The notes under the pieces were generated by a model that was given only the letters and a program-made list of their open reading frames with translations, did not search any database and was not told the origin of the DNA. A stretch of DNA of 64,000 bases. It comes from Escherichia coli. Lineage in GTDB: Bacteria > Pseudomonadota > Gammaproteobacteria > Enterobacterales > Enterobacteriaceae. The translations under genes were made by a program, and so were the position numbers. Below, one piece after another: positions 26,164 to 26,207 of the stretch; the first letter of the stretch is position 1; each line of letters starts with the position of its first letter. The stretch lies in the NCBI RefSeq assembly GCF_001677475.2, contig NZ_CP015229.1; one strand, given 5' to 3'.

Positions 26164-26207
26164 GGCTGGCTGGCTGGCTGGCTGGCTGGCTGGCTGGCTG
26201 GCTGGCT
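26164..26207. repeat. (GGCT)11 tetranucleotide microsatellite
   Basis: Eleven perfect tandem GGCT units followed by GGG. Confidence 0.95.

Follow-up and report, generated by a model that had tools for sequence, protein, structure and literature searches.

A GGCT microsatellite of variable length in the non-coding tail of a predicted Escherichia coli phage satellite

Escherichia coli is, to our knowledge, usually regarded as being without long tetranucleotide repeats and without phase variation based on simple sequence repeats (SSRs). The locus described here raises the question of how a run of eleven GGCT units came to stand in the chromosome of this species, and whether it does anything there. 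We addressed this question in one 64-kb stretch of E. coli DNA (hereafter the window) and in the related loci that could be found for it. The best reading of the tract is that of a slippage-born, length-hypervariable microsatellite without a dedicated function, to which we assign a probability of roughly 75%. It would be neutral or nearly neutral, unusual for E. coli, and of a well-known kind.

The tract and the island that carries it

Direct reading and Tandem Repeats Finder both gave a perfect (GGCT)11+GG tract at positions 26164-26209, with a period of 4, 11.5 copies, 100% matches and 0 indels. The G-rich strand is the + strand, and in another phase the same tract can equally be read as (CTGG)11 at 26166-26209. 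The eleven perfect units of the original prediction were all present, and the perfect tract extends two bases past the end given there (26207). No second period-4 array was detected by Tandem Repeats Finder in the 64-kb window. In ~210 kb of E. coli DNA, consisting of the window and the fetched E. coli loci, tetranucleotide tracts of more than three units were found solely at the GGCT locus and its homologs, and elsewhere they reached three units at most. The rarity that had been claimed for the tract was confirmed in the sense that it is an outlier in the DNA scanned. A perfect 46-bp tract of period 4 cannot plausibly have arisen by chance in 64 kb, and with perfect head-to-tail copies far beyond chance the tract is a microsatellite, or SSR.

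We found no description of this GGCT tract in the literature. Uniqueness of such tracts in nature was rejected, as 98 IMG/VR stretches contain tracts of at least seven GGCT units and so do more than 120 stretches from GTDB representative genomes, the latter figure being a lower bound and no census. These matches came mostly from high-GC taxa, and the sole Enterobacterales genome among the 80 GTDB matches listed was that of a Mixta sp.

The tract lies in an island of ~11 kb between yejM and yejO, integrated in tRNA-Pro (proL). The surrounding chromosome is E. coli-like, with the yejK-yejM region matching 5424 of 5426 complete E. coli genomes at 98.8% identity in the best matches listed. Att repeats, domain content and cosN were used to define the island as a phage satellite on the + strand at 15602-26613. 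The 17-bp attL core CTCTCGTGCCGACCAAA (15602-15618) corresponds to the 3' end of tRNA-Pro(GGG) (15540-15616), and the attR core CTCTCGTGCCGACCAAA (26597-26613, + strand) is a direct repeat of this 3' end. Pfam/PHROG searches identified a tyrosine integrase with an arm-binding domain (15807-17066), a repressor-like gene (17777-18640), a D5-type primase-helicase (19410-21215), a lambda gpE-like major capsid gene (22242-23369), a gpD-like decoration gene (23379-23720), AlpA (23732-24115) and a Nu1-like small terminase, TerS (24305-24859). The exact lambda cosN sequence GGGCGGCGACCT was located at 24172-24183, upstream of the terminase gene.

The island combines an integrase at a tRNA att site, AlpA, a primase-helicase with adjacent origin repeats and packaging functions, it falls within the size range of ~10-15 kb, and it is without tail or lysis genes, all of which are features of phage satellites. 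Judged by this gene content and by the exact lambda cosN upstream of the terminase gene, it is a cos-packaged (PICI-like) phage satellite. No portal, protease or large terminase genes were found in the island, and on the evidence of its genes it is a satellite of the lambda-cos kind that encodes capsid shell proteins of its own (gpE-like and gpD-like). The cosN sequence is situated ~120 bp upstream of the Nu1-like TerS gene (context 24116-24304). Repeat searches also located a cluster of iteron-like GGTGAACAGT repeats, direct and inverted, at ~21214-21430, directly after the primase-helicase gene; this cluster is the probable replication origin of the satellite.

The last gene before the tract encodes a PerC-family regulator (25750-26052, + strand), of 100 aa from this ATG and with a longer ORF from 25681. 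The ORF matched Pfam PF06069 (E=7.6e-23) and its stop is at 26052. The 100-aa protein is identical to WP_021558663.1, which many E. coli satellites encode and which is very widespread: the index of the assembly collection lists it in 3367 blocks. Among Gram-negative PICIs, genes of the PerC family are known as accessory genes (PMC11773190). PerC is separated from an unknown - strand gene (ending ~25637) by a divergent region of 112 bp, in which we observed a near-perfect 32-bp palindrome, CTTATTGTGGGACAGTACTGTCATACAATAAG (25647-25678), that looks like an operator.

From the PerC stop to the attR core the tail of the island measures 544 bp, and no conserved ORF spanning or following the tract was found in it. 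This agrees with the earlier placement of the tract in a non-coding tail of ~540 bp between the PerC-like gene and attR. The tract begins 112 bp past the PerC stop, and 388 bp separate its end from the attR core. Between the stop and the tract there is a perfect 8-bp hairpin, GACTATCT-GAAA-GATAGTC, without a U-tract (26076-26097, + strand), which was kept in all tails, with a different loop in one of them (L010). The terminator scan called no + strand intrinsic terminator between the PerC stop and the tract, so that the tract probably lies within the PerC 3' untranslated region. On the - strand the same scan called a terminator-like hairpin at 26260-26284, whose 11-bp stem contains G-U pairs and is followed by AAUUUUAUUU. 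This hairpin points to a leftward transcript of the satellite tail that is not annotated and that the terminator would stop ~40 bp before the tract. The tract would then probably be situated between the ends of two convergent units.

Repeat number in related loci

Next to the window we analysed the alleles of its relatives. A 271-bp query centred on the tract was compared with 5426 complete E. coli genomes and gave 27 near-full-length matches, one of equal length (A36), one 8 bp shorter (A19) and 25 that were 36-37 bp shorter. By direct reading the tract is (GGCT)11 in A36 and (GGCT)9 in A19, and all others that were read carried (GGCT)2GG or the interrupted form GGCTGACTGG; the counts of short alleles in the genomes that were not fetched were taken from match lengths. 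IMG/VR added two alleles, one of 13 units (L011) and one of 2 units. The metagenome scan added an 8-unit allele (L123) and three 2-unit alleles, its other matches being unrelated sequences. All ten loci retrieved through the exact PerC protein were short or interrupted. Altogether the PerC-plus-tail module was detected in ~50 other loci (E. coli, IMG/VR, metagenome), and ~45 of the ~50 carry only the 2-unit (GGCT)2GG or the interrupted GGCTGACTGG. The expanded loci, including the window, number five, with 8, 9, 11, 11 and 13 units.

The flanks are ~97% identical among the alleles, and those of the expanded alleles are intact and collinear. Repeat number was not invariant across isolates, as alleles of 2, 8, 9, 11, 11 and 13 units were read. 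The slipped-strand changes in length that had been predicted were borne out by these whole-unit differences between isolates within such similar flanks.

A neighbour-joining tree and a haplotype table were made from 730 flanking positions. The expanded alleles did not form one clade in the tree. A19 and A36 form a sister pair, with 3 differences among the 730 flanking sites and two repeat units between them. The window and L011 are each placed separately. L123 with its 8 units nests among the 2-unit alleles and has the flank haplotype of the 2-unit clade. The near-identical flanks of A19 and A36 with a two-unit gap between them, together with the 2-unit-clade haplotype of L123, indicate that the expansions are recent and probably independent. 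A single origin of all expanded alleles is not supported by the tree or the haplotype table, although recombination is possible. The carriers are different mosaic satellites, with that of the window and that of A19 at proL and that of A36 inside yifB. The pattern as a whole is the signature of a proto-repeat that expanded, probably more than once, and went on slipping afterwards.

At the level of sequence, the comparison of alleles establishes an origin by slippage and the expansion of a seed. The ancestral satellite tail carried the 2-unit seed CC-GGCT-GGCT-GG-GCAG, and replication slippage (slipped-strand mispairing) expanded it in a few lineages. From ~8 units upward, gains and losses of whole units continued and gave rise to the alleles of 8, 9, 11, 11 and 13 units. 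Expansions may be tolerated because the site is without coding or verified regulatory constraint, in DNA that appears to lie between the ends of two convergent units. In other species, tetranucleotide tracts count as hypermutable from ~10 units upward and as proto-mutable at 2-4 units (PMC4235727, Table 1), and it is from this length class in other species that the tract is taken, by analogy, to be hypermutable.

The tendency to grow may be caused by the folding of the G-rich strand, the only one of the two predicted to fold on itself, via G-C and G-T/G-U pairs. Predicted folding energies were −14 kcal/mol for the + strand and −3.6 kcal/mol for the - strand as DNA, and −37.9 and −14.9 kcal/mol, respectively, as RNA. 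Outside the island the chromosomal GC skew on the + strand is negative, from which it follows that the G-rich strand corresponds in sequence to the nascent lagging strand. This would be the orientation that favours expansion. Kang et al. reportedly described, in 1995, an orientation-dependent instability of (CTG)n.(CAG)n in E. coli plasmids, and in such CTG/CAG plasmid work the orientation in which the hairpin forms on the nascent lagging strand is said to favour expansion. The GGCT tract resembles these repeats in having a quasi-stable mismatched hairpin on one strand only, and the orientation for expansion appears to match. It differs from them in having a tetranucleotide unit at a natural chromosomal or satellite locus, whereas they are trinucleotide repeats on an experimental plasmid. 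Recurrent expansion, if the expansions are independent, could also reflect selection and not mutation bias alone.

Two other kinds of E. coli repeat are comparable to the tract. Metzgar et al. (2001, Mol Microbiol 39:183) are said to have described polymorphic non-coding E. coli microsatellites, mainly short mononucleotide runs. Like these, the GGCT tract would be a neutral, fast-evolving SSR in non-coding DNA, but as an 11-unit tetranucleotide tract it is far longer than typical E. coli SSRs. In lacI, CTGG at only 3 copies is a classical E. coli slippage hotspot, according to the summary of Farabaugh et al. 1978 that is given in PMC12606429. CTGG is GGCT in another phase, the host is again E. 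coli, and slippage is again by whole 4-bp units. As far as that summary goes, the lacI hotspot has 3 units in a coding gene, which is inactivated, whereas the tract has 11 units (8-13 in relatives) and lies in non-coding satellite DNA. The natural (CTGG)8-13 series on the unit of the lacI hotspot shows that an expansion of proto-repeats is possible in mobile-element DNA free of constraint. The tract is also a candidate for a very fast-evolving marker of the satellite module, host lineage or strain, and as a natural substrate it lends itself to measurements of how tetranucleotide repeats slip in E. coli and how this depends on orientation.

Other readings of the tract

The original prediction also held that the tract could modulate a nearby promoter or RNA in a phase-variable way. 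Stated more fully, it would be a tunable or phase-variable regulator of the PerC transcript or of a tail RNA, which we consider unlikely. Two routes can be envisaged for such control. Along the RNA route, the (GGCU)n repeat could fold in the 3' untranslated region of PerC into a hairpin that serves as a terminator-like or stabilising 3' structure. Along the DNA route, changes in tract length could alter the spacing or helical phase between the CACAACAGAGT motifs and a -35-like hexamer, by analogy with the TAAA tract of nadA. There are precedents for both, since SSRs can act through distal promoter spacing, as in the phase variation of nadA (PMC2791445), and through the structure of an untranslated region (PMC12721329).

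For the RNA route, read-through from PerC into the tract is plausible because no + strand intrinsic terminator was called between them. The predicted RNA hairpin scales with the number of units, from none at n=2 to −35.6 kcal/mol at n=9, −37.9 kcal/mol at n=11 (z = −4.6) and −50.2 kcal/mol at n=13. The expanded hairpin would be very stable and is followed by CAGAUUUUG, and might affect the PerC transcript. Against this, the U-run consists of 4 U only and begins 4 nt past the stem, and the structure was not called by the terminator scan. Rfam 15 gave no match at E≤1 across 26053-26700 or in the island and nothing relevant at E≤0.1 in the full-length tails of four relatives, and a known RNA in the tail was rejected on these grounds.

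For the DNA route, exact copies of the 11-bp direct repeat CACAACAGAGT bracket the tract on the + strand (left copy 26124-26134, right copy 26239-26249), and a third, partial copy, ACAGAGTAACC, was seen at 26270. The bracketing repeat, like the hairpins at 26076-26097 and 26260-26284, belongs to the small features of the tail that are conserved. A weak sigma-70-like match, TGGGCA-16-TATAGT (26207-26234, + strand), has a -35-like hexamer that abuts the tract and overlaps its last repeat unit, an arrangement that resembles the distal-promoter phase variation of nadA. However, the CACAACAGAGT motif is absent from the rest of the island. The promoter-like match does not exceed chance, with 2 sites found as compared to 2.3 ± 1.7 in shuffles, and its -10 is altered in three relatives (L006, L007 and L140). 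A promoter beside the tract was rejected because the scan result was at chance level.

Tetranucleotide contingency loci are known from Haemophilus influenzae and Neisseria, with an AGTC tract in mod and a TAAA tract upstream of nadA (PMC4235727, PMC2791445). The GGCT tract is similar to these in being a perfect tetranucleotide repeat in the mutable-to-hypermutable length range that is polymorphic between isolates, and, like the nadA tract, it is intergenic and flanked by repeated motifs. Unlike the GGCT tract, however, the Haemophilus and Neisseria tracts each belong to a defined gene, being located in its promoter or its 5' coding region, and they stay long across strains. The GGCT tract is 3' of PerC, it is linked to no gene or verified promoter, and ~90% of the homologous loci have the 2-unit seed. 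Only 5 among ~50 homologous loci (~10% of carriers) have the long tract, so that it is not maintained, and the proposal of phase-variable control also lacks a conserved downstream gene, an above-chance promoter and an Rfam match. There is no positive evidence of gene control by the tract.

A stronger form of this proposal is a long shot. In a few E. coli satellites (GGCU)n would be a recently evolved, heritable and rapidly reversible 'dial' on PerC-family output or tail-RNA expression, either through a long hairpin of G-C and G-U pairs in the PerC 3' untranslated region or by varying the distance between the CACAACAGAGT motifs. If true, no SSR contingency locus would have been described before from a phage satellite of enterobacteria. 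Unless regulation of this improbable kind is real, the understanding of PerC and of satellite biology is unchanged by the tract.

It is quite improbable that mosaic satellites have a recombination or module-junction hotspot at this site, with the repeat as a by-product or promoter of illegitimate recombination. A hotspot had been put forward earlier, and several rearrangement breakpoints do lie within ~10 bp of the tract or of a flanking repeat. Homology to L010 starts at 26216, that to L008 and L012, whose tails are without PerC, starts at 26126 in the left CACAACAGAGT copy, and a deletion in L009, L142 and L144 starts directly after GGCTGACTGGACAG, at ~26213. Additionally, L270 (CP148445) and L271 (CP132063), the relatives that come closest to the island body (~95% identity), were compared against 25215-26418 of the window and were found to lack PerC, the unknown gene on the - strand and the tail module. 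To judge from these relatives, the window satellite is a recombinant that acquired PerC and the tail module by recombination from a different satellite type. But the breakpoints are found in short or interrupted-seed alleles, and are thus independent of the long tract, and the expanded alleles keep intact, collinear flanks. A hotspot of the Chi type is excluded by the sequence, as in an exact-match search the tract reads GCTGGCTG, with 2 mismatches from Chi, 5'-GCTGGTGG-3'. The hotspot that had been proposed is in this way left unsupported.

The exact-match search gave genuine Chi sites at 25299 and 26444 and none in the tract. Chi (GCTGGTGG) is dense in the island, with 11 sites in 11 kb on both strands (16987-26451), and 26 sites were counted in the whole window as compared to 2.2 ± 1.6 in shuffles. 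The density in the island could relate to RecBCD protection of linear packaged satellite DNA.

A coding role is scarcely credible. The tract would then encode a repeat peptide, (GWLA)n from the + strand or (PASQ)n from the - strand, in a small phase-variable ORF, and there are indeed two ORFs with GTG starts that cross it, one of 40 aa (26133-26255, + strand) and one of 43 aa (26110-26241, - strand). These tract-crossing ORFs exist only because the repeat is without stop codons. The reading frame across the tract is not kept among the alleles, since 8, 9, 11 and 13 units give different values of 4n mod 3. The GTG start of the 40-aa ORF on the + strand is GTA in A19 and A36, and no Shine-Dalgarno sequence was seen on inspection for the tract-spanning ORFs. 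With neither frame nor start codon conserved, the coding explanation is effectively refuted.

A sequencing or assembly artefact, in favour of which we found no point, has a negligible probability and was excluded, as four independent assemblies of different origin all show an expansion at this site, with clean flanks and with lengths that differ.

Further features of the satellite tail

The small ORFs of the tail had no PHROG match. A 'hypothetical protein' of 103-106 aa is annotated downstream of the tract in A19, A36 and L142. The homologous DNA of most relatives contains frameshifts and stops, and in the window the ORF is deleted. Because of these frameshifts and stops, the annotated tail genes of 103-106 aa are probably not genuine. 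Annotated genes of this kind (RefSeq or gene-caller) were recorded at 12842-13153 in L001, 14392-14700 in L002 and 2655-2975 in L142.

The tail of the window is 270-790 bp shorter than the tails of relatives, with a window-specific deletion junction at 26419-26440 that contains a G8 run. The junction also holds part of a palindromic motif, CCCCATTGGGG, which recurs in the tails of different satellites. The DNA of relatives that lies opposite the deletion is found at 12813-13498 in L001 and at 1824-2617 in L004. The tails of relatives are long, conserved and non-coding, and reach up to ~1.3 kb.

Several other origins or functions of the tail were also considered. A phage origin was rejected, as a distant blastn search of 50,697 phage records gave no match to the tail. 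A cos site in the tail was rejected, the exact lambda cosN being located at 24172-24183 upstream of TerS. Integrase arm sites in the tract region are unlikely, as the PerC-tail module up to 26418 is common to satellites at different att sites; the satellites that share it are found at proL, at yifB and adjacent to smrA, thiM and clpS.

Lastly, the - strand terminator-like hairpin at 26260-26284, GGTTAC-AGA-GTAACC in the window, shows a compensatory double change in L131, where it reads GGTTGC-AAA-GCAACC.
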